64,000 nucleotides of DNA from Phycisphaerae bacterium (GCA_020056715.1 JAGVHG010000040.1:11920-75919), one strand, 5' to 3'. Counted from the first letter of the stretch, positions 19,236-64,000 are shown. The notes: a model not told the origin generated them from the letters alone. Translations and numbers: made by a program.

Positions 19236-19261
19236 ATGTACACGGGTCGATCAATGAACCT

Positions 19262-19329: not shown

Positions 19330-19337
19330 GCGTCCAA

Positions 19338-25028: not shown

Positions 25029-25117
25029 TTTCTCATTGACGATCCTGCACCGGTACGGTATTTCTCCCTATCAAACCTCCCGCAATGATGGATTGTTGAA
25101 GATCATTGGAGTCACGT

Positions 25118-40466: not shown

Positions 40467-40567
40467 CAGTTTCTCCTCTAATAGATTCCTGTGGGATTCT
40501 CCGGTCCATCGCTTGGACCGCAAACACATCAGTGCACCGTCAACTGGATCCAGGTTTTTGCGCACCG

Positions 40568-46675: not shown

Positions 46676-49600
46676 TTGAAAGGTACCGCTGTGACAAGGC
46701 AGAAAGGCTCCAACATCGTTCGCGTCATCAAGTTCAAATCCCTGGTACTTGTCCTCGGACTTCCAGCTCTGGCGACCGTCACTCAAGGAGGGGTAGAGGT
46801 GCAGCTCGTGCTCAACCCGGACCAGGCGGCTTATTCGCCGAACCAAGTCGTGCAGGTCGACGTCAATCTGGCTCAAGCGCCAGGCGGCAGTGATCAGCTC
46901 TTGCGCATGGTCGAGTTTGATCTGCAAGCCACAAACCCGTTCCTCACGCTCGCTCTCCCGTTGACGCACAACAAAGGGACGCCGGGCACGGGCGATGACA
47001 TCAAGTTTTGGTCGTTCAGTTCGCTTTCAATGTGCGTATCTTTCCCGTCGTTCTGCGGATTCAGGCACCTCATCGACGACGACCGCCCGGCTGGTCCGGT
47101 GGACATGCGGGTGGACGTTCTTTCGATCGCATACTTCGGTTTGACCGCTGATTCGACGGCGCAGATCCTCCTTCCGGCAAGCGGCGTACCGCTGACTATC
47201 GGTCGGTTGCAAGTCACGATGCCGGCGTTCGACGGGGATTTCATGCTGAACCTGGTAAACGCCGGCGACCCCGATCCCGTCCGCGGCACCCATGTGGACT
47301 TTGGCTTCGACTCGCATATCATCTGGGAGGCCCGTCTCGCCGCGCCCAACGATGTGACTGGTGGGACCGTTCTGTTCCATGTTTTTTCACCGCTTGCGAC
47401 ATCGCCGCCATTAATCGCCCTCGAACCCGATATACCGAAAACCCGAGTGCTTTCCTTTAATGTCCCGCCCGCCGGTGGCGGGAACGGTTCCGCGACGGCC
47501 ATCAAGATCACGATGGTCGATTTGCAAAACCCGAATCCGCCGAACTTGCCGCAATACCCACCGCCAAACTTCGGTGCGTACGAGTCTGAAACGTGTATGG
47601 CCGCGGGCGAGATGAACGGGTGTGCCCGCTGGGTGGGCAAGCCGGGGATCTTCCTTGAATCGCAGGACAGTCCGGGCCTGGGGAGCTTCGCCGGCGCACG
47701 CCTGCAGTGCACACCGTACTACCATGACTTCGCGGGCGAAGGCCTGCTTCACGTAACCGGGGCCGAAATCGTCCCCAGCTCCACGTATAAGGTCGAAGTG
47801 TTCGGAAGCAACTGCAATGGCAACGAGAGCACTTGCATGGATGTATCCGCCCCGGTGACGATCGGCACGCGCCGTTCCGGCGACGTGTCCGCGTTGTATC
47901 AGGTACCCTCACCAGCGACTCTGTCCCAGCCCAACGCAGTCGACGTCGCGCAATTGGTCAACAAGTTCAAGAACGTGACGGGCGCTCTGGTGAAAGCGAT
48001 CGCACAGTTGCAACCCAACCTGCCGGAGTTAAACGCGGACGTGAGCGCCTTGGACATCGTGGCGGTGGTGGATGCGTTGAAGGGCTTCGCCTACCCGCTC
48101 AGCGGTCCCTGTCCGTGCCCGTCGACGGTGCCCTGCGGCAGCGTCGCGTGCCCTTCGGGTCCGGCGCCTTGTGTTGCCGCATTCGGCGCCGGCGCTATGT
48201 GCGTGAAGACCTGCACGGGCGGCGCCAACCATGGCGACCCGTGCATCAGCGACACGCACTGTCCCGGCGGAACCTGCGGCAATGCCTTCTGCCGCGATCG
48301 CTGCGGACGGTGCGACGCTCCGAATTGCGACGATCAAAACCCGTGCACGGACGATTCTTATTTGTACGGGGTCTGCGAACACGCCGACAACACCAACTCC
48401 TGCAACGACAACAACGCCTGTACGACGAACGATCATTGCTCCAACGGCTCGTGCAGCGGAACAATCCTTGACTGCAACGACAGCAACGAGTGTACGGACG
48501 ATTCGTGCAATCCAGCGAGCGGGTGTGTCCTTGTGAACAACTCCAATTCCTGCACCGATGGGTTGTTCTGCAACGGAAGCGATACGTGCAGCGGCGGGAA
48601 CTGTGGTTTACACTCGGGTAACCCGTGTCCGTCCAACACCACTTGCGACGAAGCAACGCAAACATGTATGCCGAGGGGCAGCGTGATATCGTTCAAAGCG
48701 GTCAAGAGAAACAACGTGGCGATCACGCCGACCAACAACCTTACAGTCCTCGGGGGCGACACGATCGAAGTGGAGCTCTTCCTTTCCAACTGGATCAACG
48801 ACTTTCCAGTCGATGACATTCCCAATAATGTCCGTCTCTTTCAAGTGAAACTTGACCGTGAGCGGTACGTCAGTCCCGATAATGGAACCGCCAAGCCGCT
48901 GGGCTGGTGCGGGCCGGTGGAGAGGATCAACTGCACAGGGTCGGCTACTTGTCCACCCGAGTACCCCATTTGCCTAACGCCTGCGGGGTGCACGTGCTCA
49001 CCGCACAATCCGGACCTTGGGGGGTTCATTACCACGTCGCGAACGGACTTCCTGCTTTTCGGACTGGACGGGCCTACACCCCAATGCGTCACTTCAGTCA
49101 TTGACTATACATACTATGGGGTAGCCGCGGACAGCTCAGTGCCGGACACGGGAGTGCCCCGCTATCTCGGCACCTTGATCCTAAAGGTGTCCGCGAACGC
49201 CTGCGGCACATTCACCATCGGCTTCGTCCAAGAAATCGGGAATACGTTCATCGCCGATCCGGCTCCTAAGCCGAATGTGGCGTTGCCGGCTTTGCAGCCG
49301 CTCCTTCTTACGGTTAGCGATTGTTCGCAGCAGCTTTTGTCTTGTAGCCCCGGTCACTGCAACATTGATGCCCGCATCGCCCACGACCGGCACGACCAGA
49401 ACATAAAGAAAAATACGAACCGGATGGTGATGACTTTCAGTAAACCGACCACGGGAATGACGGCGGCGGACTTTGAAATCACGGTTGTTCCCTACGATCC
49501 CATTAATGATATCATCCCCACCATTAGCATCTTAACGCCGAACGGAACGGACCCGAAGATAACAACCCTCACCCTCAACCGCCGCATCCAGCAGACGCGT

Positions 49601-49927
49601 TGGACGTGTATCCGCGAAAAGGGGAGTAACAAACGCTGCTGCATGGGCAGCCTTCCCGCGGATGCGCACAACAACCTCATCAGCCAACCGGACGACGTGT
49701 TTGAAGTCATCAACAATCTCCAAGGCTGCTTAAACCCGCCTAGCTGCTCAGATCCCCTTCTCCCGATAGAACGGTGCGACGCCGACCGCAACCTGCAGTG
49801 CTTACCGGCGGACCTCCTCATGGTCGTCGACCTGCTCAACGGGGCCGATGCGTTCACCGAAGTCAACGGCGACACGCTTCCAGCGCTCTTCAATCGCGCG
49901 TGCCCGTCGATGAATTTGGCTCCGTAG
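46676..49927 (+). CDS. large secreted protein with Dictyostelium-type Cys-rich (CTDC-like) repeats and a dockerin/EF-hand-like C-terminus
   Basis: Signal-like N-terminus (FKSLVLVLGLPALATV). A central run of C.D.N.CT.D.C repeats (NCDDQNPCTDDS, SCNDNNACTTNDHC, DCNDSNECTDDSCN and others). Two C-terminal D.N..I...D segments. Start is TTG 46676 or GTG 46691. Confidence 0.8.
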   Translation: MKGTAVTRQKGSNIVRVIKFKSLVLVLGLPALATVTQGGVEVQLVLNPDQAAYSPNQVVQVDVNLAQAPGGSDQLLRMVEFDLQATNPFLTLALPLTHNKGTPGTGDDIKFWSFSSLSMCVSFPSFCGFRHLIDDDRPAGPVDMRVDVLSIAYFGLTADSTAQILLPASGVPLTIGRLQVTMPAFDGDFMLNLVNAGDPDPVRGTHVDFGFDSHIIWEARLAAPNDVTGGTVLFHVFSPLATSPPLIALEPDIPKTRVLSFNVPPAGGGNGSATAIKITMVDLQNPNPPNLPQYPPPNFGAYESETCMAAGEMNGCARWVGKPGIFLESQDSPGLGSFAGARLQCTPYYHDFAGEGLLHVTGAEIVPSSTYKVEVFGSNCNGNESTCMDVSAPVTIGTRRSGDVSALYQVPSPATLSQPNAVDVAQLVNKFKNVTGALVKAIAQLQPNLPELNADVSALDIVAVVDALKGFAYPLSGPCPCPSTVPCGSVACPSGPAPCVAAFGAGAMCVKTCTGGANHGDPCISDTHCPGGTCGNAFCRDRCGRCDAPNCDDQNPCTDDSYLYGVCEHADNTNSCNDNNACTTNDHCSNGSCSGTILDCNDSNECTDDSCNPASGCVLVNNSNSCTDGLFCNGSDTCSGGNCGLHSGNPCPSNTTCDEATQTCMPRGSVISFKAVKRNNVAITPTNNLTVLGGDTIEVELFLSNWINDFPVDDIPNNVRLFQVKLDRERYVSPDNGTAKPLGWCGPVERINCTGSATCPPEYPICLTPAGCTCSPHNPDLGGFITTSRTDFLLFGLDGPTPQCVTSVIDYTYYGVAADSSVPDTGVPRYLGTLILKVSANACGTFTIGFVQEIGNTFIADPAPKPNVALPALQPLLLTVSDCSQQLLSCSPGHCNIDARIAHDRHDQNIKKNTNRMVMTFSKPTTGMTAADFEITVVPYDPINDIIPTISILTPNGTDPKITTLTLNRRIQQTRWTCIREKGSNKRCCMGSLPADAHNNLISQPDDVFEVINNLQGCLNPPSCSDPLLPIERCDADRNLQCLPADLLMVVDLLNGADAFTEVNGDTLPALFNRACPSMNLAP

Positions 49928-52816: not shown

Positions 52817-52890
52817 TGCGCCCGGCGGGATTCGAACCTGCGACCCCCGGTTTAGGAAACCGGTGCTCTATCCAACTGAGCTACGAGCGC
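52817..52890 (-). tRNA. tRNA-Arg (anticodon CCU)
   Basis: Reverse complement: GCGCTCGTAGCTCAGTTGGATAGAGCACCGGTTTCCTAAACCGGGGGTCGCAGGTTCGAATCCCGCCGGGCGCA. It has a 7-bp acceptor stem (one G-U pair), D-arm GCTCAGTTGGATAGAGC, anticodon stem CCGGT/ACCGG with loop TTCCTAA, and T-arm GCAGG-TTCGAATC-CCGCC-type. No encoded CCA. Confidence 0.9.
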
Positions 52891-52896
52891 TCGAAA

Positions 52897-52926
52897 CAGA
52901 CCAAACGCCCGTGAGCGTTTGGGCGA
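52897..52926 (+). repeat. 30-nt hairpin module
   Basis: cag accaaacgc ccgtga gcgtttggg cga. It lies 7 nt from the tRNA-Arg 5' end. Confidence 0.8.
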
Positions 52927-53009
52927 CGTCAACACTTCAAACGGGCGAGGCAACCACTCCAACCATCGTAACCGTAGGAACCGAGAACCCCAAGGCTGCG
53001 GTCGCCCGC

Positions 53010-53090
53010 GAAGATTGAAGATTGAAGTCCGAAGTCCGAAAATGGCGGAACGCCGATTGCCGTCCGGCCTTCGATCTTCGGACTTCTTCG
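53010..53090. repeat. family B (GAAG/GATCGAAG) inverted-repeat element
   Basis: gaagattgaagattgaagtccgaagtccgaa ... ccttcgatcttcggacttcttcg. The arms are related to those at 24986 and 56132. Confidence 0.6.
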
Positions 53091-53135
53091 TCCGGGAATG
53101 GTCCCCTTTAGAACGCCGCGAACCCTTCATCCCGT

Positions 53136-53165
53136 CAGTTCCACGACCCGTGAGTCGTGGAACGA
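53136..53165 (+). repeat. 30-nt hairpin module
   Basis: cag ttccacgac ccgtga gtcgtggaa cga. The 9-bp stem is perfect. Confidence 0.8.
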
Positions 53166-53273
53166 GGACTCTAACGGCTGATAAACCATTCGTGCATTCG
53201 CGCTTCCGAAGGTGGTCTCGCCCAAAAGTGCTTGAAGTGAAGGGCGGCAGTTCCGCAAACGATAACGATGCAG

Positions 53274-53346
53274 GGAAATGTGGAAACGCCGAAGCCGGGA
53301 AAAGCCGAAATTTCGGCGTTTCAGCGTTTTGACTTTTCCGTTTCGG
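53274..53346. repeat. family A ~74-nt palindromic element (GAAACGCCGAAA type)
   Basis: ggaaatgtggaaacgccgaagccgggaaaagccgaaatttcggcgtttcagcgttttgacttttccgtttcgg. The whole element folds on the centre gaaatttc. Confidence 0.75.
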
Positions 53347-53356
53347 ACGGGGTCGT

Positions 53357-53386
53357 CAGCGGCAAGGCCGGTGAGCCTTGCCGCGA
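53357..53386 (+). repeat. 30-nt hairpin module (loop variant CGGTGA)
   Basis: cag cggcaaggc cggtga gccttgccg cga. The 9-bp stem is perfect. It contains the TTG (53378) that the ORF track uses as the kinase start. Confidence 0.75.
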
Positions 53387-55564
53387 GGAGATGGTGCGCA
53401 CAGCTTGCGAAACTGGTGGAAATCATTTCGAGGGTTCCTCACCGCGGAGGAAGTGCCGCGTTGGTTCGGCCTTTCCGTAGTTCTCATCTACGTCGTGGGA
53501 ATGGGGTCCATCGCCCAGTTCGGCATCGCCCAGGCGCGGCGGGAGACGGCGATCCGTTTCCAGATTGACAGCCAATACGCGGTCAAGCTCCTCGCCGATC
53601 GAATCGAGGCCATCGAGGGCGAGGGCGCAACCGACCCGAAGTGGTTGAGCGTCTGCCAACGAGCGCTGCGGGAGTTCGCGGCCAACGTCCCCGCCAAATC
53701 CGTTCGCGTTGTTGAAGGCCGTCCTCCGGGGCGGATCATCGCCTCGACCAACCCCACGGAAACCGGGACCAGTACCACTCCCGGCGCGCCGGGAGTGGCG
53801 CGTGGGGCGCGAATCGCGGCACACCAAACGCCCTTGAGTCCGCCTGCGGCGGAGGCGAGCGGATCAACCAAGGCATTGCAACCAGGCGGGCTGGAGATCG
53901 CAACGATTTCCTCGAACGGCTCCGAAACGCGGCATCGACTCCTCCGTGCGCCGCTCCACCGTATCCATCAGAGCCGGGAGTCCGCCGCAGGCGGACGACC
54001 GGAATCGACGTACGTGGACCACGCTGCCCAGGAGGCCAATCGGGTCGCTACCGCTCCCCGCTCTGATCAAGACGCCTACCTAGAGGTCATCCTGCCCTTC
54101 GAACCGGTCGAACCGACGAGTCTTGCCAACCAGGCGCGGATGCTGGCCATCGTCCTGGCCGTGCTCGGGGCGTTGTTTGTGGTCTATCGATGTTTGCGCG
54201 AACAGCTTCGCGGACTCTCCAAGATCGCCGGCCGTCTGGAATTGCATCGAGATCGGATTGAAGACGACCTCGCCTCCCTGCGGATCGGTGACGCACTCGA
54301 TGGAGTCACCGTGGGCTGGAATGAACTCGTTGACCTGACCGAGCGACTCCAAACTAGCGTTCAGCGGACCGAGGCCAACGAGGAACTTTCCAGCGTTCTT
54401 CAACGCACAGGCGCTGGGGCGTTGTCCGAAGCGCTCAACGCCGTCCCCGACGGGCTGATGTACATCTCCGATGAAGTTCGCTTCGAGTATCTCAACTCGG
54501 CGGCCCTGCGACTACTCGGGTGGAATGCGCCAGACGCCAACGTCAGCGGCGTGGCCCGTGAGCCACGCCGTGAGAGAAACTATCCGACCCTGATCGATGC
54601 CCAGGCGAACGGACTGGGCCTGAAGCTCTTGGAATTGATTCGCGGCGCCGCCTTGCCGGAGGGCGTTTTTGAAGCGCGGACCGAGGTGCTCGAGGCCGGC
54701 GACGCCGAGGCCCACGACCTCAGTACCTACCGTGTGTGGCTGATTCCCTTGCAGCGCGCCCGTCACCACGGCGAGTGCGTCGTCGTCATCCGTGATGTGA
54801 GCCAGCAGTTTCGCGCCGACCGTGCCCGCGAGGAATTCATCGCCCAGGTGACGCACGAACTACGCACGCCGCTCACCAACATCCGGGCGTATACGGAGAC
54901 CCTTTCCAGCGGCATGTTCGAGGACCCCAAGGTCATCACCGAGTGCTACAACGTGATCACCAAGGAGACCCGCCGGCTGTCGCGTTTGGTGGAGGACATT
55001 CTGAGCGTTTCGCAGTTGGAGGTCGGCTCGATCGAGCTGCACGTGGACAGCGTTGACCTCAAGGTTTTACTGAACGACGGCGTACGCGACGTTCGGGGCC
55101 TCGCCGATGAGAAAAACATCGACGTCCAATTGGTCTTGCCCGCAAAGCTCGAACCGGTCCGCGCCGACCGCGACAAGCTCGCCGTGGTCATCAACAACCT
55201 CCTCGGCAACGCGATCAAGTACACGCCCGCCAACGGTAACGTGATGGTCGGCTGTCAGGTCGCCGCCGACGTCGTGGTGCTCACTTTCAAAGACAACGGC
55301 ATCGGAATCGACCCCTCGGAGCACACCAAGGTCTTTGAGAAGTTCCAGCGCGGCAGCAACCCGGAGGTGCAGAGCGAGTCGGGCACGGGTATCGGTCTCT
55401 ACACGGCCCGCGAGATCGTACGTCGTCACGGAGGGGACATCGAGCTGCTCAGCGAAAAGGGCAAGGGTTCGACCTTTATGGTGCGCTTGCCGCATCGCGA
55501 GAGCCGCGCCGCCGCCGTCAGCACCAACTCCCGTGAGAGTTGGGGCGGTCAGTCCGCGGTGTAA
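53378..55564 (+). CDS. sensor histidine kinase (two TM helices, repeat-colonised extracytoplasmic region, PAS, HisKA, HATPase_c)
   Basis: H-box FIAQVTHELRTPLTNI, N-box NNLLGNAIKYT, G1 DNGIGI, G2 GTGIGLYTAREIV. TM helices FGLSVVLIYVVGMGSIAQFGI and MLAIVLAVLGALFVVY. The start is uncertain (TTG 53378, TTG 53405 or GTG 53453). Confidence 0.88.
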   Translation: MPRGDGAHSLRNWWKSFRGFLTAEEVPRWFGLSVVLIYVVGMGSIAQFGIAQARRETAIRFQIDSQYAVKLLADRIEAIEGEGATDPKWLSVCQRALREFAANVPAKSVRVVEGRPPGRIIASTNPTETGTSTTPGAPGVARGARIAAHQTPLSPPAAEASGSTKALQPGGLEIATISSNGSETRHRLLRAPLHRIHQSRESAAGGRPESTYVDHAAQEANRVATAPRSDQDAYLEVILPFEPVEPTSLANQARMLAIVLAVLGALFVVYRCLREQLRGLSKIAGRLELHRDRIEDDLASLRIGDALDGVTVGWNELVDLTERLQTSVQRTEANEELSSVLQRTGAGALSEALNAVPDGLMYISDEVRFEYLNSAALRLLGWNAPDANVSGVAREPRRERNYPTLIDAQANGLGLKLLELIRGAALPEGVFEARTEVLEAGDAEAHDLSTYRVWLIPLQRARHHGECVVVIRDVSQQFRADRAREEFIAQVTHELRTPLTNIRAYTETLSSGMFEDPKVITECYNVITKETRRLSRLVEDILSVSQLEVGSIELHVDSVDLKVLLNDGVRDVRGLADEKNIDVQLVLPAKLEPVRADRDKLAVVINNLLGNAIKYTPANGNVMVGCQVAADVVVLTFKDNGIGIDPSEHTKVFEKFQRGSNPEVQSESGTGIGLYTAREIVRRHGGDIELLSEKGKGSTFMVRLPHRESRAAAVSTNSRESWGGQSAV
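53776..53797. repeat. perfect 22-nt palindrome, sharing a 19-mer with 56558-56576
   Basis: cactcccggcgcgccgggagtg. The 19-mer tcccggcgcgccgggagtg recurs in the HD-GYP gene. Both are read in the same frame as PGAPGV. Confidence 0.75.
53820..53859 (+). repeat. composite hairpin module inside the kinase ORF
   Basis: cac accaaacgc ccttga g tccgcctgcggcgga ggcgag. Translated as HQTPLSPPAAEAS. Confidence 0.8.
53969..53998 (+). repeat. 30-nt module variant (CAG-N9-[tccgcc-gca-ggcgga]-CGA) inside the kinase ORF
   Basis: cag agccgggag tccgccgcaggcgga cga. Same head, tail and total length as the canonical modules. Confidence 0.6.
54044..54070 (+). repeat. short dispersed repeat (family G variant) inside the kinase ORF
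   Basis: 24 of 27 positions identical to the intergenic copy at 28101-28127. Confidence 0.6.
54544..54573 (+). repeat. 30-nt hairpin module inside the kinase ORF
   Basis: cag cggcgtggc ccgtga gccacgccg tga. The 9-bp stem is perfect. Read as SGVAREPRRE. Confidence 0.8.
55519..55548 (+). repeat. 30-nt hairpin module inside the kinase ORF 3' end
   Basis: cag caccaactc ccgtga gagttgggg cgg. 8 of 9 stem pairs. Read as STNSRESWGG. Confidence 0.78.
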
Positions 55565-55572
55565 CCGGGCGG

Positions 55573-55618
55573 CAGAACCAATCCGTCGGTCTGCGGATGG
55601 GTGTTGGTTCGAGTTTTT
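55573..55618 (+). terminator. CAG-hairpin-CGAG element followed by T5 between the kinase and receiver genes (weak terminator or attenuator candidate)
   Basis: cag aaccaa-tccg tcggtctg cgga tgggtg ttggtt cgag ttttt. This is a 10-bp interrupted stem with an asymmetric bulge. The T-run begins 4 nt after the stem. Confidence 0.3.
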
Positions 55619-55629
55619 GGGATCCGAAT

Positions 55630-56025
55630 ATGGCCAAGATTCTTATTGTCGATGATGACGCCCATATCGTCCGCGTCCTGTCCATGTGGCTGGGTCGGCA
55701 CGGCTACGACGTGGTCACGGCGCGCAACGGCGAGGCGGCTTTGGCGACGCTGGATCGCGAAGAGGTCGACATGATCATCTCGGACATGAACATGCCGGGT
55801 CTGGACGGGGTCGGACTGGCGAAGGCGGTTCGAGCGAAAAGCGGCCCCACGATTCCCATTCTCATGTTGACGGCCCGTTGCGATCAGGAACGTCTCAGTG
55901 AACAGCTTGCGGCGTATGGTGTCCGCGTATACCCCAAACCGTTCCTCCCGTCGCAGTTGGTAGTGGAAATCAACTCCGCCTTCGGCGGATTAGGCGTCGC
56001 CGCCAGTGAGGGTTCGGTATCATGA
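55630..56025 (+). CDS. single-domain CheY-like response regulator
   Basis: MAKILIVDDDAHIVRVLSMWL...VDMIISDMNMPGLDG...PKPF. 131 aa. Its stop forms an ATGA overlap with the next gene. Confidence 0.88.
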   Translation: MAKILIVDDDAHIVRVLSMWLGRHGYDVVTARNGEAALATLDREEVDMIISDMNMPGLDGVGLAKAVRAKSGPTIPILMLTARCDQERLSEQLAAYGVRVYPKPFLPSQLVVEINSAFGGLGVAASEGSVS

Positions 56026-57521
56026 CTCGTCCAAAAAAACAGCATGCTGTTCCGACTTCTCCCGGCGCCCCGGCGACGTCCAAGATCGAAGCATCAGACG
56101 CACGGCCCGTGAGCCGTGCGGCGAGGGAAGGCCCGAAGATCGAAGAACCCGACCGTTTGGGCCTTCGATCTTTGATCTTTGATCTTCGATCTTCGGGTGA
56201 CCTGACCGCGTTGCTGCCGGCTCTGTCGTCGTCGGTCGAACAGTTGATGACCGAGCACCAGGGCATGGCCGACGAATTGCTCTGCCTGTACGAACAGCTC
56301 GGCATCATCTTTGAGATCACCCGCAAGCTCGCCGGGGTTCATAACGAATCCGATGTTCTCGACCTTTTTCTAATCAGCCTGCGACGCAGTTTTGAGGAAC
56401 GGACCGTCTTTGCCGCCCACAGCCGCCCCCGCGGATGGGTGTTGGAAGGGAAACGCGACCGTCATGCGAGCCGACCGGGAAGGGAGGGTCCAGATGGGAG
56501 CGGCGACACGATGGTGGTCAATGAATGGTTGCGCGGACTGCTCGACCGTGCCGCGAATCCCGGCGCGCCGGGAGTGATCGTCGAATCGGCGTTGCCGGGG
56601 GCCATGCCCGGCGCTATCGCCGAGGCCATGATCGCCCCGGTGATCTCCGGCGACGCCCTTGTCTGCTCCCTCGTTCTCCTCCGCACCGAAAAGACGCCTG
56701 CGTTCCGGGCGAGTGAGATGATGTTGATCGAGTCCCTCACCACCTTCTGCGGCGACCTGATCCGCAGCCATCGGCTGGTGCGCGAGCTTCGCGAGATGTC
56801 TCTCACCATGGTGCGGGCCTTGGTCAACGCCATCGATCAGAAGGACGAATACACCTGCGGTCATTCCCTGCGCGTGGCGTACTACGCCACGACGCTGGGT
56901 CAACACCTCGGCTTGGGTGAGGTCGATCTCCAGATGCTCCAGTGGGCCGCGCTCCTCCACGACGTGGGGAAAATCGGGATTCGCGACAACGTCCTTAAGA
57001 AGGAAGGCAAGCTCACTCCCGAAGAGTTCGGGCATATCCAGGAACACCCCGTCCGCAGCCACAAGGTCGTGCAGGAAGTTCCGCAGCTTCTCCGAGCGTT
57101 AGACGGCATTCTTCATCACCACGAACGATACGACGGCTCCGGATACCCCGCAGGGCTGAAGGGGGAACAGATCCCGTACCAGGCACGGATCATTCAGATC
57201 GCCGATGTGTTTGACGCTCTGACCTCCAACCGCTCTTACCGTAAGGCCTTCGACTGGCAGCGGGCCTTAGGAATCCTTCAAGAAGAGGCCGGCAAAACCG
57301 TCGACCCGTGTTTGCAGAAGATCTTCGACACCCTCATCCGCGAGACGCTGAAAGACGAGCCGATGGCATGGGAACGCATGGTCGAACACGCCAACCGTTT
57401 CATGCAGGGTCTGGATGCTCCCGACGACCGAGAGTCAGACGACGCGACCGTCAGACGACGCGACCAAGGCGGGAGCGTCCGGGCGCCGGGAGTCGGCGGA
57501 AATAGAAGGAGAATGACATGA
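56022..57521 (+). CDS. HD-GYP domain protein (predicted c-di-GMP phosphodiesterase) with a GAF-like N-terminal region
   Basis: HSLRVAYYA, LLHDVGKIGI, HHERYDGSGYP. The first ~75 codons consist of repeat elements. An alternative start at ATG 56247 would leave them intergenic. Confidence 0.85.
   Translation: MTRPKKQHAVPTSPGAPATSKIEASDARPVSRAAREGPKIEEPDRLGLRSLIFDLRSSGDLTALLPALSSSVEQLMTEHQGMADELLCLYEQLGIIFEITRKLAGVHNESDVLDLFLISLRRSFEERTVFAAHSRPRGWVLEGKRDRHASRPGREGPDGSGDTMVVNEWLRGLLDRAANPGAPGVIVESALPGAMPGAIAEAMIAPVISGDALVCSLVLLRTEKTPAFRASEMMLIESLTTFCGDLIRSHRLVRELREMSLTMVRALVNAIDQKDEYTCGHSLRVAYYATTLGQHLGLGEVDLQMLQWAALLHDVGKIGIRDNVLKKEGKLTPEEFGHIQEHPVRSHKVVQEVPQLLRALDGILHHHERYDGSGYPAGLKGEQIPYQARIIQIADVFDALTSNRSYRKAFDWQRALGILQEEAGKTVDPCLQKIFDTLIRETLKDEPMAWERMVEHANRFMQGLDAPDDRESDDATVRRRDQGGSVRAPGVGGNRRRMT
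56082..56197. repeat. family B inverted-repeat element with a nested 30-nt hairpin module (56095-56124)
   Basis: Perfect 14-bp arms cccgaagatcgaag (56132-56145) and cttcgatcttcggg (56184-56197). The nested module is cag acgcacggc ccgtga gccgtgcgg cga. Confidence 0.78.
56558..56576. repeat. palindromic 19-mer shared with 53779-53797
   Basis: tcccggcgcgccgggagtg, identical in both genes. Confidence 0.75.
57434..57480 (+). repeat. family E element (16-bp tandem duplication plus a 27-mer shared with pilM)
   Basis: gtcagacgacgcgacc occurs twice (57434-57449 and 57450-57465). gacgacgcgaccaaggcgggagcgtcc (57454-57480) is identical to 63580-63606. Both are read as RRDQGGSV. Confidence 0.8.
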
Positions 57522-58915
57522 CGCTGACACTTCTATTGCCGTGGTTTCCGATCCTCTTGGCCGTCGGCGTCGGCGGACGGTTGTTGGGGCGCAGTCGCGG
57601 CTTCGCCCTCGGCCTGGTGTGCGGGATGTTTTGGATCGTCTTGGTTCAGGCAACCGCCGGAACCGGAGTGTGGAGGCAGCCGTGGGTGGTCGTGACCATG
57701 CTCATCGGCGCCGCGGCGATTTTTCTGATTGGCGGGTGGGCCGGTTCCGCCGAAGGCGGACCGCTCGACGATCTCGCGCCCATCCGAACCCGGAGCGCAA
57801 GCGACGGGTCAAGACCCCGCGCTGGCGCTTGGGGTTCGGATTCCACGGAGCGCTCCTCCGATGAGACGACGATCGCCCTCGACCGGTTCGCAACCGTGAT
57901 CCAGCAGTTCGACGACTGGCTTGTCGAACACCGCGACGATGCCGACCCTTGGCCGTTGTTCGGCGAGTTCATTCGCGGCGCCCTGTATCAATGTTGCAAG
58001 GCGACGCACGTAAAACCATTTCGCTTACTCAGCGAAGGCGAAGAGCTGACGCCGCTCCAATCGTCCCGGTTGGAGCCGGACCCATTTACGGAAGGTAGGC
58101 GAGTTTCCGCTCGGCAGGGGATTCTAGGTCATGTGGTTACGAGCGGTCGATCCTACGTAGAAGGCGACCGGACCCAGGGTGAGCTGATCGAGCAACTAGC
58201 CCAGGCCTGCCCTGAACCGATCGTGTGGTGCTTCGCCATCACCCAAGGCACCCAAAGACTCGGTGCGGTGACGGCGGGTCAACTGGACATCGTTCCCGCA
58301 GACAACCTGGCGCTGCTTCGCGCCGTCGAACAACTTGTCTCGCAATGTTGGTGCCTGCTCGCTGAAACGGTTCACAGCCGCACCGCCGGTCAAGATGACC
58401 CAGGCTCGGGACTCTATAACCGGACCGCGTTCCTCCAGGTCGCAGAGCAATCGTTGCGCGAATCGTACGCTCAAGGTGAACCGGTGGCGATCGCCGTGAT
58501 CGTCGTGGAAGGGATGCGCGAGCTGAACGACGCCGGAAGATGGGAGGTCGCCGATGAACTGGTCCGCGAAGTCGCCGACTCCCTACGCCGCAAGATTCGC
58601 ATGGATGACCGCCTCGGGCGTTTCGACGGTTCGCGTTTCATCTGGCTGCTACGCCGCGTAGACGCCGAGTTGGCGTCGCTGATTGTCAAGCAAGTGATAT
58701 CGCGTCTGACGACGTTGTGCGGCGACCGTAGCCGATGGTCCGCCTCTGGCGGAGCGATCACTGTGCGTTGCGGCGTGGTCGGTAGCGGTACCGGTAGTAG
58801 AAACCCCGACCTCCGCACGCTGGTCTCCCATGCCTTGGTGCAGTCTCGCCGTGCAAGGCTCGAACATGTGACCATCGCCGGCGAACTGGACGCGGCGGAA
58901 ATGTCGAAACGCTGA
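57518..58915 (+). CDS. membrane-anchored GAF-GGDEF protein with a degenerate active site (DGSRF) and an intact RxxD I-site
   Basis: Two N-terminal TM helices and a GAF-like middle region. The GGDEF-fold pattern is GLYNRTAFLQVAEQ...VAIAVIVVEGMRELND...RKIRMDDRLGRFDGSRFIWLL. It has an ATGA overlap with the HD-GYP gene. Confidence 0.8.
   Translation: MTLTLLLPWFPILLAVGVGGRLLGRSRGFALGLVCGMFWIVLVQATAGTGVWRQPWVVVTMLIGAAAIFLIGGWAGSAEGGPLDDLAPIRTRSASDGSRPRAGAWGSDSTERSSDETTIALDRFATVIQQFDDWLVEHRDDADPWPLFGEFIRGALYQCCKATHVKPFRLLSEGEELTPLQSSRLEPDPFTEGRRVSARQGILGHVVTSGRSYVEGDRTQGELIEQLAQACPEPIVWCFAITQGTQRLGAVTAGQLDIVPADNLALLRAVEQLVSQCWCLLAETVHSRTAGQDDPGSGLYNRTAFLQVAEQSLRESYAQGEPVAIAVIVVEGMRELNDAGRWEVADELVREVADSLRRKIRMDDRLGRFDGSRFIWLLRRVDAELASLIVKQVISRLTTLCGDRSRWSASGGAITVRCGVVGSGTGSRNPDLRTLVSHALVQSRRARLEHVTIAGELDAAEMSKR
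57782..57841 (+). repeat. family F 60-bp palindromic element inside the GGDEF-protein ORF
   Basis: Perfect 10-bp termini atccgaaccc / gggttcggat. 53 of 60 positions identical to 62570-62629 inside pilM. Read as IRTRSASDGSRPRAGAWGSD. Confidence 0.85.
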
Positions 58916-58970
58916 AACACCGAAACGCCGAAATTTCGGCTTTTCCCCATTTCGGCGTTTTCGCATTTGG
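58897..58970. repeat. family A ~74-nt palindromic element between the GGDEF gene and the STAS gene
   Basis: ggaaatgtcgaaacgctgaaacaccgaaacgccgaaatttcggcttttccccatttcggcgttttcgcatttgg. It covers the last 6 codons and the stop of the GGDEF gene. Confidence 0.85.
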
Positions 58971-58977
58971 ATAGCCT

Positions 58978-59313
58978 ATGAAGATCGAACAGCAACAGGT
59001 CGGAACGGTGGATGTCTTCACCCCCATAGGGCCTCTGGTGGACCAGGACGGAGAGACCTTTTCGAAGGCGCTCCTCACCAGGGTGAAGTCGCCCAACCCC
59101 CGCATCGTGTTGGCCATGCAGGAAGTCCCCTATGTAGACAGCAATGCTCTGGAGGGCTTACTCACCGCCACTGATGAACTCAACGAACGCGCCTCCAGCC
59201 TCAAGCTGGCCACCGTTACCCCGACCTGTCGGGAGATCTTCGAACTGACCGGATTGTCGCCACGGTTTCGTTTCTTCAAAGACGTGCAGGACGCGGTGAA
59301 GAGCTTTTTGTAG
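58978..59313 (+). CDS. STAS-domain protein (anti-sigma-factor antagonist / SpoIIAA-like)
   Basis: 111 aa. The pattern VDVFTPIGPLVDQD...LAMQEVPYVDSNALEGLL...LKLATVTPTCREIFELTGL matches the STAS fold, with the conserved Ser in YVDSNALEGL. Confidence 0.82.
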   Translation: MKIEQQQVGTVDVFTPIGPLVDQDGETFSKALLTRVKSPNPRIVLAMQEVPYVDSNALEGLLTATDELNERASSLKLATVTPTCREIFELTGLSPRFRFFKDVQDAVKSFL

Positions 59314-59386
59314 GAGAAAGCGGAAACGCCGAAACACCGAAACGCCGAATTTTCGGCTTTTCCCCATTTCGGCGTTTTCGCATTTA
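59313..59386. repeat. family A ~74-nt palindromic element between the STAS gene and the ATPase gene
   Basis: The 55-nt core (59331-59385) differs from 58914-58968 at one position. Confidence 0.85.
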
Positions 59387-59390
59387 GCCG

Positions 59391-61157
59391 ATGCCGAATC
59401 TAACCATCGAAACCGCAGTCCGACTCGGCGACCAGCTCATCCGCGACGGCGTGGTCACGGCTGAGCAACTCGCGGACGCCTTGGCGCGTCAGTCCGCCGC
59501 AGGCGGAGCGGTGCGTATCGGCAAGGCGCTCATGGACGTCGGCGCCATCTCCTCCGCCGCCCTCGTTGGGGCGCTCGCCCGACGGCTTAACGTGAAGGGA
59601 ACTACGCTCCGTCACGGTCTCATCGACCCCAAAGTCGCTAAGTCCATCCCCAAGGAGGAGGCCGAACGGCTGCGCGTGCTGCCCCTGTTCCGGGTGCGCG
59701 ACGAACTCACCGTGGCCATGGTCGATCCGCAATCTCTGCCCGTCCAAGATCGGCTTCGGTCGCTCACCGGCTGCGCGATTCGCTCAGTTCTCGTTCTCGA
59801 GGAAAACCTCGCCGAGTACCAGCAGAAATACCTCGCCGCCGAGGTCACCGTCGATTCCTTCCTCGCCTCGATGGAAGAGTCCGACATTCAGATCACCGAG
59901 TCGGAAGCGATCGACGAAGGCCCGATCACCGACCTCGACAAGATGGTCGAGGGCAGCCCGATCGTAAACCTCATCAACCTCGCCATACTCACCGCCCTCC
60001 GTGCCGGGGCCTCCGACGTGCACATCGAGCCGGACCGCGACGGAACGCACATCCGCTATCGCATCGACGGCGAGTTGCGCGAGATGCTCAAGCCCCCGCG
60101 GGGGATGCACGCCGCGATCGTCTCCCGCGTCAAGGTCATCGGGCGGATGGACATCGCCGAAAAGCGGCTCCCTCAGGAGGGTCGCGTGCATCTCGTCGCT
60201 GACCGTCGCGAGATTGACCTGCGTGTCTCCTCCATGCCCACCGTGCTCGGCGAAAAGATCGTGCTCCGCATTCTCGACAAGGCCAATCTCTCCTTCGAGC
60301 TGGAAACCCTCGGAGTTCGAGGACAGGACCGTTGGGCGATCGAGGCCATGATCCACAGCCCCTACGGCCTGATGCTCGTCACCGGGCCTACCGGCTCCGG
60401 AAAGACCACGACACTATATTCCGCTTTGGATCTCCTCCGCGACGAGTCCACCAACATCGTCACCATCGAGGATCCGGTGGAGTATCAACTGCCGCTCGTC
60501 AACCAGATTCAGGTCAACGAACGAGTGGGGCTGACCTTCGTCCGCGCCCTGCGGTCCATCCTCCGACAAGACCCCGATGTCATCATGGTCGGAGAAATTC
60601 GCGATCAGGACACCGCCCGCGTGGCGATTCAGAGCGCCCTCACCGGCCACTTGGTCCTCTCCACCCTGCACACCAATGACTGCCCCGGCGGCATCATGCG
60701 CCTGGTGGACATGGGCATCGAGCCGTTTCTCCTCACCGCTTCCATCCTCGGCTTCGTCGCCCAGCGGCTCGCCCGCACGATCTGTGCATCTTGCAAAACC
60801 TCCTACTATCCGCCACCCAATTTGCTCAAGCAGGTCGGCTGGGAGAATCGCACCAGCGAACTCTTCCAAAAGGGCGAAGGCTGCCGGGAGTGCAACAACA
60901 CCGGGTTCCGCGGGCGCATCGGCATTTACGAGGTGATGCTGCTGGACGCGGAACTCAAGCAGATGATTCAGAAGAACCCGTCGGAAACCGACATCCGCGT
61001 CTACCTCGCCCAGACCGGATGGCGGACGTTGCGGGAAAAGGCCCTCGACCTGGTCGAGCGCGGTGAATCCACGCTCGAGGAAGTGCTGCGGGTGACGCGC
61101 TCCGAGGCGCTCGACGTCAGTGATCCGTCGGGCGCCGGAAGAGTGGGTGAATCATGA
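59391..61157 (+). CDS. GspE/PilB/MshE-family secretion ATPase with an N-terminal MshEN-type domain
   Basis: Walker A GPTGSGKTTT, Walker B VIMVGEIRD, His box TGHLVLSTLHTN, and the tetra-Cys cluster CASCK...CRECNNTG. The N-terminus is RLGDQLIRDGVVTAEQLADALARQ, then RIGKALMDVGAISSAALVGALARR. Confidence 0.9.
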   Translation: MPNLTIETAVRLGDQLIRDGVVTAEQLADALARQSAAGGAVRIGKALMDVGAISSAALVGALARRLNVKGTTLRHGLIDPKVAKSIPKEEAERLRVLPLFRVRDELTVAMVDPQSLPVQDRLRSLTGCAIRSVLVLEENLAEYQQKYLAAEVTVDSFLASMEESDIQITESEAIDEGPITDLDKMVEGSPIVNLINLAILTALRAGASDVHIEPDRDGTHIRYRIDGELREMLKPPRGMHAAIVSRVKVIGRMDIAEKRLPQEGRVHLVADRREIDLRVSSMPTVLGEKIVLRILDKANLSFELETLGVRGQDRWAIEAMIHSPYGLMLVTGPTGSGKTTTLYSALDLLRDESTNIVTIEDPVEYQLPLVNQIQVNERVGLTFVRALRSILRQDPDVIMVGEIRDQDTARVAIQSALTGHLVLSTLHTNDCPGGIMRLVDMGIEPFLLTASILGFVAQRLARTICASCKTSYYPPPNLLKQVGWENRTSELFQKGEGCRECNNTGFRGRIGIYEVMLLDAELKQMIQKNPSETDIRVYLAQTGWRTLREKALDLVERGESTLEEVLRVTRSEALDVSDPSGAGRVGES

Positions 61158-62365
61158 TTTTGACCTACGACGCCATCGACGCCGGCGGTCGCTCGACGAC
61201 GGATTCGATCGAGGCCCAGAATACTAAGGAAGCCGTCGAACAGCTCCGCCGCCGCGGCCTGTACGTCAAGAAAATAGCCGAGCCGCGGGTTTCAGCCCGC
61301 GTAGCGAAACCGAATCTTCCTGCGTCGCTGCGTCTGCCGCTCAAACTGCTGGTTCAAATCACGCGTCAGATGGCGATGTTGCTCCGCGCCGGCAGCGAGC
61401 TGGTTCCGGCCATTTCCGCCATCCAGCGGCAGATGACGAAGCCCAACCACGCGGCCTTGCTCGGGAAGCTCGTCAACGACCTCGAAGACGGAATGACCCT
61501 CACGGACACGCTGCGGAAGCACCCCCGTACCTTCGACGCGATCTACTGCGCCATCGTCGCCGCGGGCGAAGCCAGCGGAACCCTCACCGAGATGTTAGAG
61601 CGGCTTTCGGTCATCGTGGGGAAGCGCCGGGCCCTGCGCAAGAAAATCCTCGGCGCCCTTGCCTATCCGGCGCTGCTGATCGCGATGTGTTTTCATATCA
61701 TGCTTGTGGTGTTGTTCTTTGTGCTCCCGCGGTTCAACGCCATGTTCGTTCAGCTTAACGTGGAAACTCCCGCCACCACGAAAGCGCTGTTGTCCGTGTC
61801 CGTGGTCCTGCGCGGCTATTGGCCGGTGCTGCTCTTCGTCACCGCCGCACTCGCCGGAGCGGCGGCCTGGGCGTCTACCAGCCGGGCTGGACGACAATGG
61901 CTCAGCAACGTGCAGCTTTTCATCCCCGTCGTGGGACGACTGCGATCACGCCTCATCCAAGGCCAGATTTTTCGGACCATGGGAATGCTCCTGGAGAGCC
62001 GCGTCGACGTGCTCGATACATTAGATTTAGTCCGCGAGTCTACCCTCAACGGTCGCTTTCAGAAACTGTTCAACGACCTCCAGGAGGCCGTGACTTCCGG
62101 CGGGAGGCTCAGCACCGCGTTCGAGGCGTCCACCATCGTCGAGCCTTATATTTGTCAGGCCATCTACACCGGCGAGGACAGCGGCAGTCTCGGCGCCTCC
62201 ATGTCCTTCTGCGCCGATATGCTCGACGAGTCCAATGAAGAGTTCATCAGTATGGTCACGAAACTGATCGAGCCGTTGATTCTCATCATTATGGGCTTCG
62301 TGGTCGGCGGAGTGGCGATTTCACTGTTCGTGCCGTTGTTCGATATGACCTCCGCGATCAAGTAG
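61154..62365 (+). CDS. pilC: type II secretion / type IV pilus platform protein (GspF/PilC family)
   Basis: 403 aa with two T2SSF repeats and three TM segments. ATGA overlap with the ATPase gene. Confidence 0.88.
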   Translation: MILTYDAIDAGGRSTTDSIEAQNTKEAVEQLRRRGLYVKKIAEPRVSARVAKPNLPASLRLPLKLLVQITRQMAMLLRAGSELVPAISAIQRQMTKPNHAALLGKLVNDLEDGMTLTDTLRKHPRTFDAIYCAIVAAGEASGTLTEMLERLSVIVGKRRALRKKILGALAYPALLIAMCFHIMLVVLFFVLPRFNAMFVQLNVETPATTKALLSVSVVLRGYWPVLLFVTAALAGAAAWASTSRAGRQWLSNVQLFIPVVGRLRSRLIQGQIFRTMGMLLESRVDVLDTLDLVRESTLNGRFQKLFNDLQEAVTSGGRLSTAFEASTIVEPYICQAIYTGEDSGSLGASMSFCADMLDESNEEFISMVTKLIEPLILIIMGFVVGGVAISLFVPLFDMTSAIK

Positions 62366-62378
62366 CGAGACTCTGGGT

Positions 62379-63659
62379 ATGATGGTCGCACTGAAAGCTT
62401 TGCAACGCACCAGCTGGCGCGGCAGTCGAAGCCGGATCGGTCTGGACATAGGCGCAGCTGGTATCCGCGCCGTCCAGTTGAACCGCCAAGCACAGCCGCG
62501 CGGCCCAAGTAGCCCCCGCAGCCTGGACGGTTACGTGGTGACGAACGCCGCCTGTGGCGACCGGAGCCCGTCCGAACCCGGAGCGCAAACGACGGGCCAG
62601 GACCACGCACTAGCGCTTGGGGTTCGGATTCCACCGTTGCTGCCCCGTCAGGTCGAGGATTGTCTGCGCCGAGCAAACGTCCGCGGGAAAGCCGTCGCCG
62701 CCGCCCTGGCGACTCCCGACGTGGAGTTTCATACCCTTGAGTTGCCCGCCGCCGTTTTTCAGGCCGACGAGGTCGAGGCCGCTCAGATCGTGCGATTCGA
62801 AGTGGAACGCCTCATGTCCAACTCGCACGCTCCCGTCGAGACCCGGCATTGGCGACTGCCGCAGACGAACGTGACGGCCCCGAACGCCATCGGCGCGGGC
62901 GCCGCACATGAAATCATCAACGCAACGATCAAAGTCTGTGCCGAGGCGGGGTTGACCTGCACCGATCTGGATACAACCGCCACGGCGCTCAGTCGGTTCG
63001 GCGCTGTGTTGCAGAGCCGACCCAAAGACCAGATATGGGGAGTTCTGGACGTTGGCGATCGTCAAGCCCGCTTGGTGCTTTGCCTCGACGATACGCCGAT
63101 TTTGGTGCGGACGGCGGGCGCCGGTGGACGTGCCTGGACCCAACGCATCGCCGACGCCCTGCAAGTGAGCTTCAAGGCCGCGGAAATCCACAAACGCGAC
63201 CACGGGATCGCCCTGACCGGTCGTGCACTGGTGCGAGAATCTGCACTGGTGCGAGAATCCATTCTCGCACCAGGGGCCCCCCGCCTCCCCCATTATCAAG
63301 GGGGGAAAGAGGGGGTTCGAAGCGAATTGGCCTCGTTGATTCTGGGTGCCGTACGCGCGGACCTCAACGATCTGGCCTCCGAGGTCAAGCGATCGTACGA
63401 GTATGTCCTGAGTTGTTACCCGGGGAGACAGGCCGCTGACTTGGTACTTTGCGGCGGCGGTTCGCTCCTGCACTATTTTCCCGAGTTCCTGGGCAATGCC
63501 TTGGGCATACCCGTGCGTCGAGCGTCGAGCTATCTCCAGAGCGAATCGTGTCGACTTCGCTTCGCCGCCGAGAGGGTCGGACGACGCGACCAAGGCGGGA
63601 GCGTCCACGCTCCCCTCGAAGTCCTCGCCGTGGCCGTGGGACTCGCCATATCAGAGTAG
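62379..63659 (+). CDS. pilM: PilM-like actin-fold pilus assembly protein carrying three in-frame repeat-element insertions
   Basis: N-terminus IGLDIGAAGIRAVQL, then ...VLDVGDRQARLVL..., then C-terminal LVLCGGGSLLHYFPEFL. It is 426 aa; removing the element-derived segments leaves roughly the usual PilM length. Confidence 0.75.
   Translation: MMVALKALQRTSWRGSRSRIGLDIGAAGIRAVQLNRQAQPRGPSSPRSLDGYVVTNAACGDRSPSEPGAQTTGQDHALALGVRIPPLLPRQVEDCLRRANVRGKAVAAALATPDVEFHTLELPAAVFQADEVEAAQIVRFEVERLMSNSHAPVETRHWRLPQTNVTAPNAIGAGAAHEIINATIKVCAEAGLTCTDLDTTATALSRFGAVLQSRPKDQIWGVLDVGDRQARLVLCLDDTPILVRTAGAGGRAWTQRIADALQVSFKAAEIHKRDHGIALTGRALVRESALVRESILAPGAPRLPHYQGGKEGVRSELASLILGAVRADLNDLASEVKRSYEYVLSCYPGRQAADLVLCGGGSLLHYFPEFLGNALGIPVRRASSYLQSESCRLRFAAERVGRRDQGGSVHAPLEVLAVAVGLAISE
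62570..62629 (+). repeat. family F 60-bp palindromic element inside pilM
   Basis: gtccgaaccc...gggttcggat. 53 of 60 positions identical to 57782-57841. It is read in a different frame from that copy (SEPGAQTTGQDHALALGVRI). Confidence 0.85.
63225..63316 (+). repeat. family D element (2 x 18-nt tandem plus hairpin) followed by a C-rich/G-rich hairpin, inside pilM
   Basis: gcactggtgcgagaatct / gcactggtgcgagaatcc / attctcgcaccag. Then ccccccgcctccccc-attatcaa-ggggggaaagaggggg. Read as ALVRESALVRESILAPGAPRLPHYQGGKEG. Confidence 0.8.
63580..63606 (+). repeat. family E 27-mer inside the pilM 3' end
   Basis: Identical to 57454-57480. Confidence 0.8.
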
Positions 63660-63666
63660 GGAACGT

Positions 63667-64000
63667 ATGGTCACTGTGAACCTCATTCCGGAAAGCGTCC
63701 AGGCGGCGCAAGCCCGACGCCGGCATATCAAGTGGTGGGCGGCATGCCTTGCCGTCACCACCGTAGTCGCGGTCGTGCCCGTAGGCGCCCACTTGATGCA
63801 ACACTTACGCATTGATGAGTTGCACGCCCAAAATTACAAATTCCAGACCGACCTCGCCGCCGCGCGGGTCGAACTGAAGACCGCAACCGCGGCAGCGAAC
63901 GATTCCTTCCTGCGTATCGAACGGGCCAAGGCTTTACGCACCAAACGGGCCTGGTCGGACATGTTGGCGCTGATCGGCTCCTGCCTTCCGAAGGACTGCT
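63667..64000 (+). CDS. pilN: PilN-like pilus assembly protein, N-terminal part (runs off the right edge)
   Basis: MVTVNLIPESVQAAQARRRHIKWWAACLAVTTVVAVV... The NLIP motif, one TM helix and then a coiled-coil-like segment are typical of PilN, and it sits directly after pilM. Confidence 0.7.
   Translation, partial: MVTVNLIPESVQAAQARRRHIKWWAACLAVTTVVAVVPVGAHLMQHLRIDELHAQNYKFQTDLAAARVELKTATAAANDSFLRIERAKALRTKRAWSDMLALIGSCLPKDC

Follow-up and report, generated by a model that had tools for sequence, protein, structure and literature searches.

The window analysed here, 64,000 nt of DNA from a Phycisphaerae bacterium (GCA_020056715.1 JAGVHG010000040.1:11920-75919), ends in a cluster of nine open reading frames (ORFs), all on the + strand and in one direction from 53378 to 64000, which were annotated with Pfam and NCBIfam. 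From 5' to 3', they encode a histidine kinase (HK), a stand-alone receiver (REC), an HD-GYP protein, a degenerate GGDEF protein, a STAS protein, the ATPase PilB, and PilC, PilM and PilN. The gene content and order that had been claimed for this cluster, on the same strand, were found for all nine genes:

53378..55564, + strand: HK (Pfam PAS_8; HisKA, 1e-16; HATPase_c, 3e-27)
55630..56025, + strand: stand-alone REC (Pfam Response_reg, 3.7e-24, full profile covered)
56022..57521, + strand: HD-GYP protein (Pfam HD_5, 5.5e-42)
57518..58915, + strand: degenerate GGDEF protein (Pfam GGDEF, 3.5e-13)
58978..59313, + strand: STAS protein, 111 aa (Pfam STAS, 8.6e-14)
59391..61157, + strand: PilB/GspE-type ATPase (Pfam T2SSE, 2.7e-134; MshEN, 4.8e-13)
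61154..62365, + strand: PilC/GspF platform protein (Pfam T2SSF, 1.2e-49)
62379..63659, + strand: PilM-like actin-fold protein, 426 aa (Pfam PilM_2, 1.4e-14; FtsA, 2e-7)
63667..64000, + strand: N-terminal fragment (113 aa) of PilN, starting at ATG 63667 and ended by the window edge

The three predicted ATGA start/stop overlaps are present in the sequence, at 56022-56025 (REC/HD-GYP), 57518-57521 (HD-GYP/GGDEF) and 61154-61157 (PilB/PilC). The remaining intergenic gaps measure, in order, 65, 62, 77, 13 and 7 nt, and consensus scans called no + strand terminator in them. The upstream boundary is a tRNA-Arg(CCU) gene on the minus strand (52817-52890), separated from the cluster by 490 nt; a 137-aa ORF in this gap (52919-53332) is probably spurious.

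The window was placed in the Phycisphaerae, its best PilB match, with one genome per species, being 82% identical and coming from a Phycisphaeraceae metagenome-assembled genome. It was compared with related genome loci and metagenome contigs, which are labelled L001, L022 and so on. The full nine-gene order was found in every related locus long enough to display it, that is, in about 20 Phycisphaerae loci from genomes and metagenome contigs together (among them L001, L002, L010, the two Pfam-annotated genome contexts L081 and L083, and long metagenome contigs), with STAS proteins 59-96% identical to that of the window. The question of whether this gene order is conserved can thus be answered positively.

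The association between the STAS gene and pilB extends further than the full cluster. When all ORFs of 80 PilB loci were searched iteratively, the STAS family was detected in 17 of them, always directly 5' of PilB; all 17 belong to the Planctomycetota, including Rubripirellula and Gimesia of the class Planctomycetia, and none of the 58 PilB loci from other phyla carries it. In the PilB tree, the STAS-linked ATPases form planctomycete clades in which the STAS gene is present in 17/17 loci; a sister clade, likewise planctomycete, lacks STAS and is laid out differently (PilM-N-O-x-PilB). Starting from the STAS side, six distant 111-aa representatives with 29-50% identity were inspected: PilB lies directly 3' in all five whose contig reaches downstream (29-36% identity), and the upstream side is occupied by a gene for an HK or for a GGDEF protein. 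Altogether, the STAS gene is directly 5' of pilB in every inspectable locus (more than 40), down to 29% identity. As for the suggested co-occurrence of STAS with MshEN ATPases, both searches therefore tie the family to this ATPase lineage.

The genes in front of STAS encode signalling proteins in all loci, with a composition that varies by lineage:

Window lineage: HK-REC-HD-GYP-dead GGDEF
L003, L005-L009 and L108: HK only, often overlapping STAS
Rubripirellula (L014): REC-HK
L030: REC only, with no HK beside STAS in the 10 kb upstream available
L019: REC, then a GAF-HD-GYP protein whose stop overlaps the STAS start
Gimesia (L022): HK-REC-(TM-GAF-GGDEF), where TM is a transmembrane region, and with a PilT-like ATPase between PilB and PilC

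As read from these gene orders, the stable unit is two-component gene(s)-STAS-PilB-PilC, and the enzymes for cyclic di-GMP (c-di-GMP) are lineage-specific, interchangeable inserts. Since the c-di-GMP genes are swapped or absent and the STAS-PilB pair is constant, the constant partner of STAS would be PilB and/or the two-component proteins rather than the GGDEF or HD-GYP proteins. The original prediction had STAS acting on either the ATPase or the GGDEF/HD-GYP pair: synteny ties it to PilB (and to the kinase), whereas the pair is missing from many loci. A regulatory contact of STAS with the adjacent GGDEF or HD-GYP protein consequently seems improbable to us, even if several observations point that way. 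The GGDEF gene adjoins STAS both here and in Gimesia, and the GAF-HD-GYP gene of L019 overlaps it. SiaD, a cyclase under the control of a partner-switch-like protein, is the NCBIfam family that the GGDEF protein matches best, with a score of 49 bits that falls far short of the cutoff. A precedent is also documented in Pseudomonas, where the interaction of the STAS protein HsbA with the cyclase HsbD affects type IV pili (PMC5085249). Nevertheless, the STAS-PilB pair persists without any GGDEF or HD-GYP gene in L003, L005-L009, L014, L030 and L108, so that the c-di-GMP enzymes are not the universal partner of STAS.

Concerning the STAS protein itself, it consists of a single SpoIIAA/RsbV-like domain. 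Its AlphaFold2 model (pLDDT 95.6) was matched by Foldseek to 4hyl and SpoIIAA with TM-scores of 0.87-0.89, and a helix begins at residue 55. This residue, S55, aligns with the phosphorylated serine (DSSG) of SpoIIAA; the D54-S55 pair is invariant in 13/13 diverse orthologues, and a serine is found in about 98% of the homologues. A family-specific C-terminal tail (A-V-K/R-S-F-L) was also recognised. An exhaustive, profile-free search among 1.8 billion representatives returned 732 matches at E<=1e-3, and the best 150 of these are nearly all exactly 111 aa long; the multidomain proteins among these 150 are generic (Ser/Thr kinase-ankyrin, TIR, HATPase_c_2 and tandem STAS proteins, 24-30% identity). 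The STAS proteins next to PilB are a distinct, tight 111-aa family, apart from generic STAS proteins. Within the cluster, STAS ranks second in conservation behind PilB: in L103, PilB is 80% and STAS 59% identical to the window proteins, and the other cluster proteins 34-55%.

These features raise the possibility of an ordinary anti-sigma antagonist, with an RsbW-type kinase and a PP2C phosphatase encoded elsewhere, which would control a sigma factor (for instance, for pilin or envelope genes) and lie beside pilB for co-expression. The canonical SpoIIAA/RsbV fold (TM-scores of 0.85-0.89), the near-universal phospho-serine and the match to the anti-sigma antagonist superfamily TIGR00377 (1.5e-10) are what such a protein should display. 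We nonetheless regard this explanation as unlikely, because neither the 64-kb window nor the neighbouring 10 kb of relatives yielded a kinase, a phosphatase or a suitable sigma factor, because the family is such a tight clade with only 732 matches, and because an invariant site 5' of pilB across two classes, while the upstream genes change, is unusually strict for mere co-expression. When scanned singly, the nine cluster proteins and 30 upstream ORFs of the window contained no HATPase_c_2 (RsbW-type) or SpoIIE/PP2C domain, and the predicted absence of a cognate anti-sigma kinase and PP2C phosphatase thus extends over 39 window ORFs, the few others being covered by those families that were listed in a summary. 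Likewise, no RsbW-type kinase or PP2C was found within 10 kb on either side in L081 and L083, nor in L108 and L109. With a canonical fold and a conserved phosphorylatable serine, some kinase is to be expected, and the missing cognate kinase is a gap rather than a proof of a mechanism without phosphorylation.

The window has a single sigma factor gene, of the extracytoplasmic function (ECF) type, on the minus strand at 40568-41143 and 18 kb from STAS. It is followed by a 148-aa ORF without Pfam match (unit 40119-41143, minus strand), possibly coding for its anti-sigma factor.

The two proteins at the head of the cluster have the orthodox features of a two-component system. The HK comprises two transmembrane segments, an extracytoplasmic region, and PAS, HisKA and HATPase_c domains, its N-terminal domain giving no significant Pfam match. 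Relatives align from about residue 11, which makes an in-frame TTG (53405) the probable real start. Of the HK orthologues, 15/15 retain the H-box (HELRTPLTNI) together with the N, G1 and G2 boxes; HK orthologues are found 5' of STAS in most loci. The REC protein has the expected DD...D...T...K residues, namely D9/D10, D52 in IISDMNMP, T in MLTA and K in YPKPF.

The layout of some lineages suggests another partner for STAS: the GHKL domain of the adjacent HK might bind STAS or phosphorylate its serine, in the manner of SpoIIAB and SpoIIAA, with direct output to the motor where no REC is encoded. The HK gene immediately precedes STAS, either overlapping it or leaving a tiny gap, in L003-L009, L013-L014, L105, L107 and L108; no REC occurs within 10 kb in L005-L009; and the RsbW/SpoIIAB kinases share the HATPase_c fold. 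However, every HK orthologue keeps a perfect H-box histidine and looks orthodox, REC is present in most other lineages, L030 is devoid of an HK beside STAS, and we know of no HisKA-type kinase that phosphorylates a STAS serine. This partnership is judged quite improbable. The related idea that the phospho-accepting histidine has been lost in the receiver-less lineages, turning the enzyme into a serine kinase, was discarded, given the perfect conservation of the H-box.

The next two genes encode the c-di-GMP proteins. The HD-GYP protein has intact LLHDVGK (HDxGK) and HHERYDGSGYP (HHExxDGxGYP) motifs, the window reading being HHHERYDGSGYP, and both are retained by every full-length orthologue. 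It is thus a candidate c-di-GMP phosphodiesterase, in agreement with the original prediction; its N-terminal domain of about 250 residues (aa 1-256) has no Pfam match. The GGDEF protein is membrane-anchored, with a transmembrane region, a weak GAF-like domain (best Pfam match GAF_2, at a non-significant E-value of 0.03) and the GGDEF domain. In an alignment with the active cyclases 4zmm and 3ign, the GGEEF signature reads DGSRF and the DxD metal site V-E-G, while the RxxD I-site is kept as RMDD, five residues 5' of the signature in the protein. The predicted degeneracy was not only confirmed for the window, it was also found in 19/19 orthologues, which have the identical dead signature and retain RxxD. 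Such uniformity suggests that selection maintains the protein for a role other than catalysis, plausibly the binding of c-di-GMP, which makes it a candidate c-di-GMP receptor or scaffold. No active diguanylate cyclase is encoded in the cluster, as had been stated. In the Gimesia locus (L022, 8116-9627), the place of the dead GGDEF protein is taken by a TM-GAF-GGDEF protein in which GGEEF and DxD are intact and RxxD is absent; judging by these motifs, it is the natural active-cyclase counterpart of the window cluster.

At the motor, PilB carries the Walker A motif GPTGSGKT and a tetracysteine motif, with DPDVIMVGEIRD and GHLVLSTLHTND readable in the ATPase core; Walker A and B, Asp and His boxes are all present, and the full T2SSE profile is covered. 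This PilB-type extension ATPase has its best structural matches in the type IVa PilB proteins of Geobacter (5tsg/6olj, 7e-143) and Myxococcus xanthus (3jc8, 4e-137). The first 142 residues align with the MshEN construct of Vibrio cholerae (5htl, 2e-13). The published strict MshEN pattern consists of two tandem 24-residue motifs, RLGxx(L/V/I)(L/V/I)xxG(L/V/I)(L/V/I)xxxxLxxxLxxQ, with a 5-residue spacer (PMC5013675). In the window PilB, the module spans aa 11-65: motif 1 (RLGDQLIRDGVVTAEQLADALARQ, aa 11-34) satisfies the strict pattern and motif 2 (aa 42-65) only the relaxed one. NCBIfam NF053729, an MshE-related c-di-GMP motif, is matched at 40.0 bits against a cutoff of 38. The MshEN motif that had been assigned to the ATPase N-terminus thus holds for its first half and at the family level, whereas its second half and its spacer depart from the strict form.

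The window contains the type IVa pilus parts PilB, PilC, PilM and a PilN fragment. For PilC, the NCBIfam matches to GspF (295 bits) and PilC (250 bits) are both under the cutoff. The PilN fragment is silent in Pfam, and its L001 orthologue matches PilN at 7e-7. Following the suggestion that the genes beyond the window be examined, the downstream regions of relatives were found to encode PilN, PilO-like and uncharacterised small proteins, and N_methyl pilins (PilN and two N_methyl proteins in L001; weak PilO matches in L108 and L109). This part of the expected machinery was recovered, whereas no PilQ secretin or PilT was seen within 6-10 kb downstream in L001, L081 and L083; they may be encoded elsewhere. 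The closest genome relative, L001, has a second cluster of signalling genes (PAS-HK, REC-HDOD, REC-HD-GYP and REC) just 3' of the pilus genes, on the opposite strand (17351-21643, minus strand).

Two of the few gaps in the cluster, those on either side of STAS, hold strong hairpins in which 8-nt GAAACRCC units, arranged in tandem, precede their inverted complement, and a diverged copy lies before the HK gene:

58899..58968, + strand: hairpin copy 1, which begins within the 3' end of the GGDEF gene and stops 9 nt short of the STAS ATG
59317..59385, + strand: hairpin copy 2, which ends 5 nt before the PilB ATG (63-nt core, 59323-59385)
53276..53339, + strand: copy 3, a diverged version of the GAAACGCC-unit hairpin, in the 490-nt gap and about 40-65 nt 5' of the HK start

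Copies 1 and 2 form a 63-nt direct repeat with 97% identity, and copy 3 aligns with them at 81% mean column identity. The minimum free energy of the RNA is -36.3 kcal/mol (z -3.6) for copy 1 and -39.7 kcal/mol (z -5.7) for copy 2. Hairpins were also found in the STAS-PilB gap of relatives (L085, 2665-2770; L086, 2100-2215; L093, 8328-8425; L098, 700-800; and further in L091, L094, L095, L097, L100 and L102). They have the same position and architecture, with tandem 7-8-nt units and their complement, and unrelated unit sequences (e.g. ATTGCCA, TTCAAA, GTGAGG, AAAGTC), which differ even where the proteins of two relatives are 85-96% identical. The possibility of a known RNA family or a riboswitch was considered and dismissed: Rfam gave no match for these elements, and the terminator scan did not pick them up. 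Since palindromes of this sort are also present at other places in the window and in related loci, we interpret the hairpins not as a regulator specific to the cluster but as a fast-evolving, genome-wide class of intergenic palindromes lodged in the few gaps of the operon, where they could shape transcript processing or the STAS:PilB expression ratio.

Other palindromes were noted as well. A second periodic hairpin family, with GAAGTCCGAAGATY units, occupies two other intergenic regions of the window (24981-25032 and about 53010-53090), which again suggests a genome-wide class. In L091 (6811-6870) and L097 (5438-5505), long palindromes lie apparently within the variable linkers of GGDEF/HD-GYP proteins and may be insertions into coding sequence.

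With gaps of 62-77 nt and strong hairpins on both sides of STAS, the genes of the cluster might be thought to be neighbours by chance and to share no function. The same order in more than 20 independent loci and the three start/stop overlaps argue otherwise, and the conserved synteny effectively refutes a chance adjacency, to which we give almost no credence.

It is known that c-di-GMP tunes type IV pilus motors, acting on them directly through MshEN or via PilZ/FimX adaptors. In Xanthomonas campestris, RpfC phosphorylates RpfG, a REC-HD-GYP protein that binds GGDEF proteins in a manner not dependent on their cyclase activity, and these recruit the PilZ adaptor XC_2249, which binds the motors PilT/PilU (PMC3749722). 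The window cluster resembles this cascade in having an HK, an HD-GYP protein presumably controlled by a receiver, a non-catalytic GGDEF protein and a small single-domain candidate adaptor near a pilus motor ATPase. It differs in that all parts are encoded together, in a single operon whose order follows the cascade; REC and the HD-GYP domain are on separate proteins, the GGDEF protein is dead and has no DxD contact motif, the small protein is STAS instead of PilZ, and the neighbouring motor is the extension ATPase PilB instead of PilT/PilU. No PilZ domain was found in the cluster proteins or in the L081 and L083 contexts, and the resemblance to Xanthomonas would be functional only.

In X. citri, the degenerate GGDEF-EAL protein FimX and a PilZ protein form a ternary complex with PilB's N-terminal domain (PMC8389850). 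A degenerate c-di-GMP receptor, a small adaptor and the PilB N-terminal region as target would be common to both systems. On the other hand, FimX binds c-di-GMP at its EAL domain, whereas the candidate site in the window is the GGDEF I-site; the adaptor folds differ; and the X. citri PilB N-domain does not itself bind c-di-GMP (PMC8389850), whereas the window PilB has an MshEN motif. Such c-di-GMP-binding MshEN ATPases include V. cholerae MshE (PMC5013675) and Chloracidobacterium PilB (PMC6957770). Like them, the window PilB has tandem 24-residue N-terminal motifs on a T2SSE ATPase, with a perfect match in motif 1; unlike them, it has a relaxed motif 2 and a longer spacer, and no STAS partner has been described for those two.

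Coupling of a phosphorelay to a STAS protein is also known from the HptB-HsbR-HsbA-HsbD pathway of Pseudomonas aeruginosa, in which the STAS protein HsbA has a GGDEF protein as its binding partner and influences both type IV pili and motility (PMC5085249). There, HsbA has an adjoining kinase/phosphatase, HsbR, and HsbD is active (PMC5085249), whereas the window cluster has no HsbR-like protein and its GGDEF protein is dead. Finally, the window STAS matches SpoIIAA/RsbV in fold and in the position of the phospho-serine, and departs from them in that the locus has no kinase/anti-sigma factor, phosphatase or sigma factor and the family is tied to a pilus ATPase.

From the gene content, motif states, synteny and phylum-wide STAS-PilB linkage observed above, we infer the protein contacts, the c-di-GMP binding, the direction of regulation, the target of STAS and the identity of its kinase in the following scheme. 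The reading which we favour, with a little more than even confidence, is that the cluster is the regulatory head and motor of a type IVa-like pilus operon of the Planctomycetota, gated by the two-component system and by c-di-GMP, with STAS as a PilB-proximal adaptor. The gene order would mirror the flow of the signal. The membrane HK would sense an extracytoplasmic or PAS-borne cue and phosphorylate the stand-alone REC, which, being translationally coupled to the HD-GYP protein, would control c-di-GMP hydrolysis. The dead membrane GGDEF protein would read c-di-GMP via its I-site, as a receptor or scaffold beside the HD-GYP protein, and PilB would sense the same local c-di-GMP pool directly through its MshEN module, as a second input. 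The STAS adaptor would relay the upstream signalling state to PilB, taking the role of the small PilZ adaptor of Xanthomonas. Its conserved serine suggests that the state of the adaptor is under phospho-control, probably through phosphorylation of Ser55.

A more specific proposal, which we put forward tentatively and with limited confidence, is that the 111-aa STAS protein is a sigma-independent partner-switch element which binds PilB itself: phosphorylation of Ser55 would toggle STAS on and off PilB and would gate pilus assembly post-translationally, in parallel to c-di-GMP. In the receiver-less lineages, Ser55 is possibly phosphorylated by the GHKL domain of the adjacent HK.

Several observations weigh against the adaptor scheme. 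The conserved Ser55 would imply a kinase, and none is apparent in the neighbourhood; no fusion of STAS to T2SSE, REC, GGDEF or HD-GYP domains occurs in the best 150 of the 732 representatives. The dead GGDEF protein lacks the DxD motif needed for the HD-GYP::GGDEF contact in Xanthomonas (PMC3749722). The MshEN spacer has 7 residues in the window (aa 35-41, SAAGGAV) against the canonical 5 in all close relatives, which might alter the affinity for c-di-GMP, and the strict MshEN motif is missing or changed in the STAS-linked PilBs of L012, L014, L019 and L022, which indicates that the STAS linkage is independent of c-di-GMP sensing by PilB. Lastly, stable hairpins flank STAS, so the nine genes may not form one simple transcript.

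Elsewhere in the window (692-3882, + strand), a 578-aa protein without Pfam match precedes a regulator built like NtrC/PilR, with REC, sigma54 activator and HTH_8 domains. A very large, Cys-rich, secreted-looking protein of 1083 aa (46676-49927, + strand) and a DUF4215 repeat protein of 614 aa (33286-35130, minus strand) are presumably giant surface proteins of the kind typical of planctomycetes. A gene for a HepT-like ribonuclease toxin (36694-37032, minus strand) is probably one half of a HepT/MntA toxin-antitoxin pair.

As a whole, the components of the cluster and the c-di-GMP control of pilus ATPases are already known, whereas a dedicated STAS protein beside PilB across the phylum, together with swapped c-di-GMP enzymes, appears to be undescribed. 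In the literature searched, which left most subscription journals outside, no paper was found that connects STAS (or anti-anti-sigma) proteins to PilB, to type IV pili or to Planctomycetes. A STAS gene fixed 5' of pilB in both of the major planctomycete classes sampled points to an undescribed control of pilus assembly.

The surface appendages of the Planctomycetota have been little studied, and few genetic models are available. The cluster provides a testable candidate for the coupling of environmental sensing to pilus assembly in this phylum. Its variants also offer a natural series for local c-di-GMP signalling at the motor, with an active GGDEF protein in Gimesia, a dead GGDEF protein and an HD-GYP protein in the window, and neither in other loci. 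If STAS does toggle on PilB, partner switching by STAS proteins would gain a new class of output, and the type IV pilus motor a new accessory subunit.

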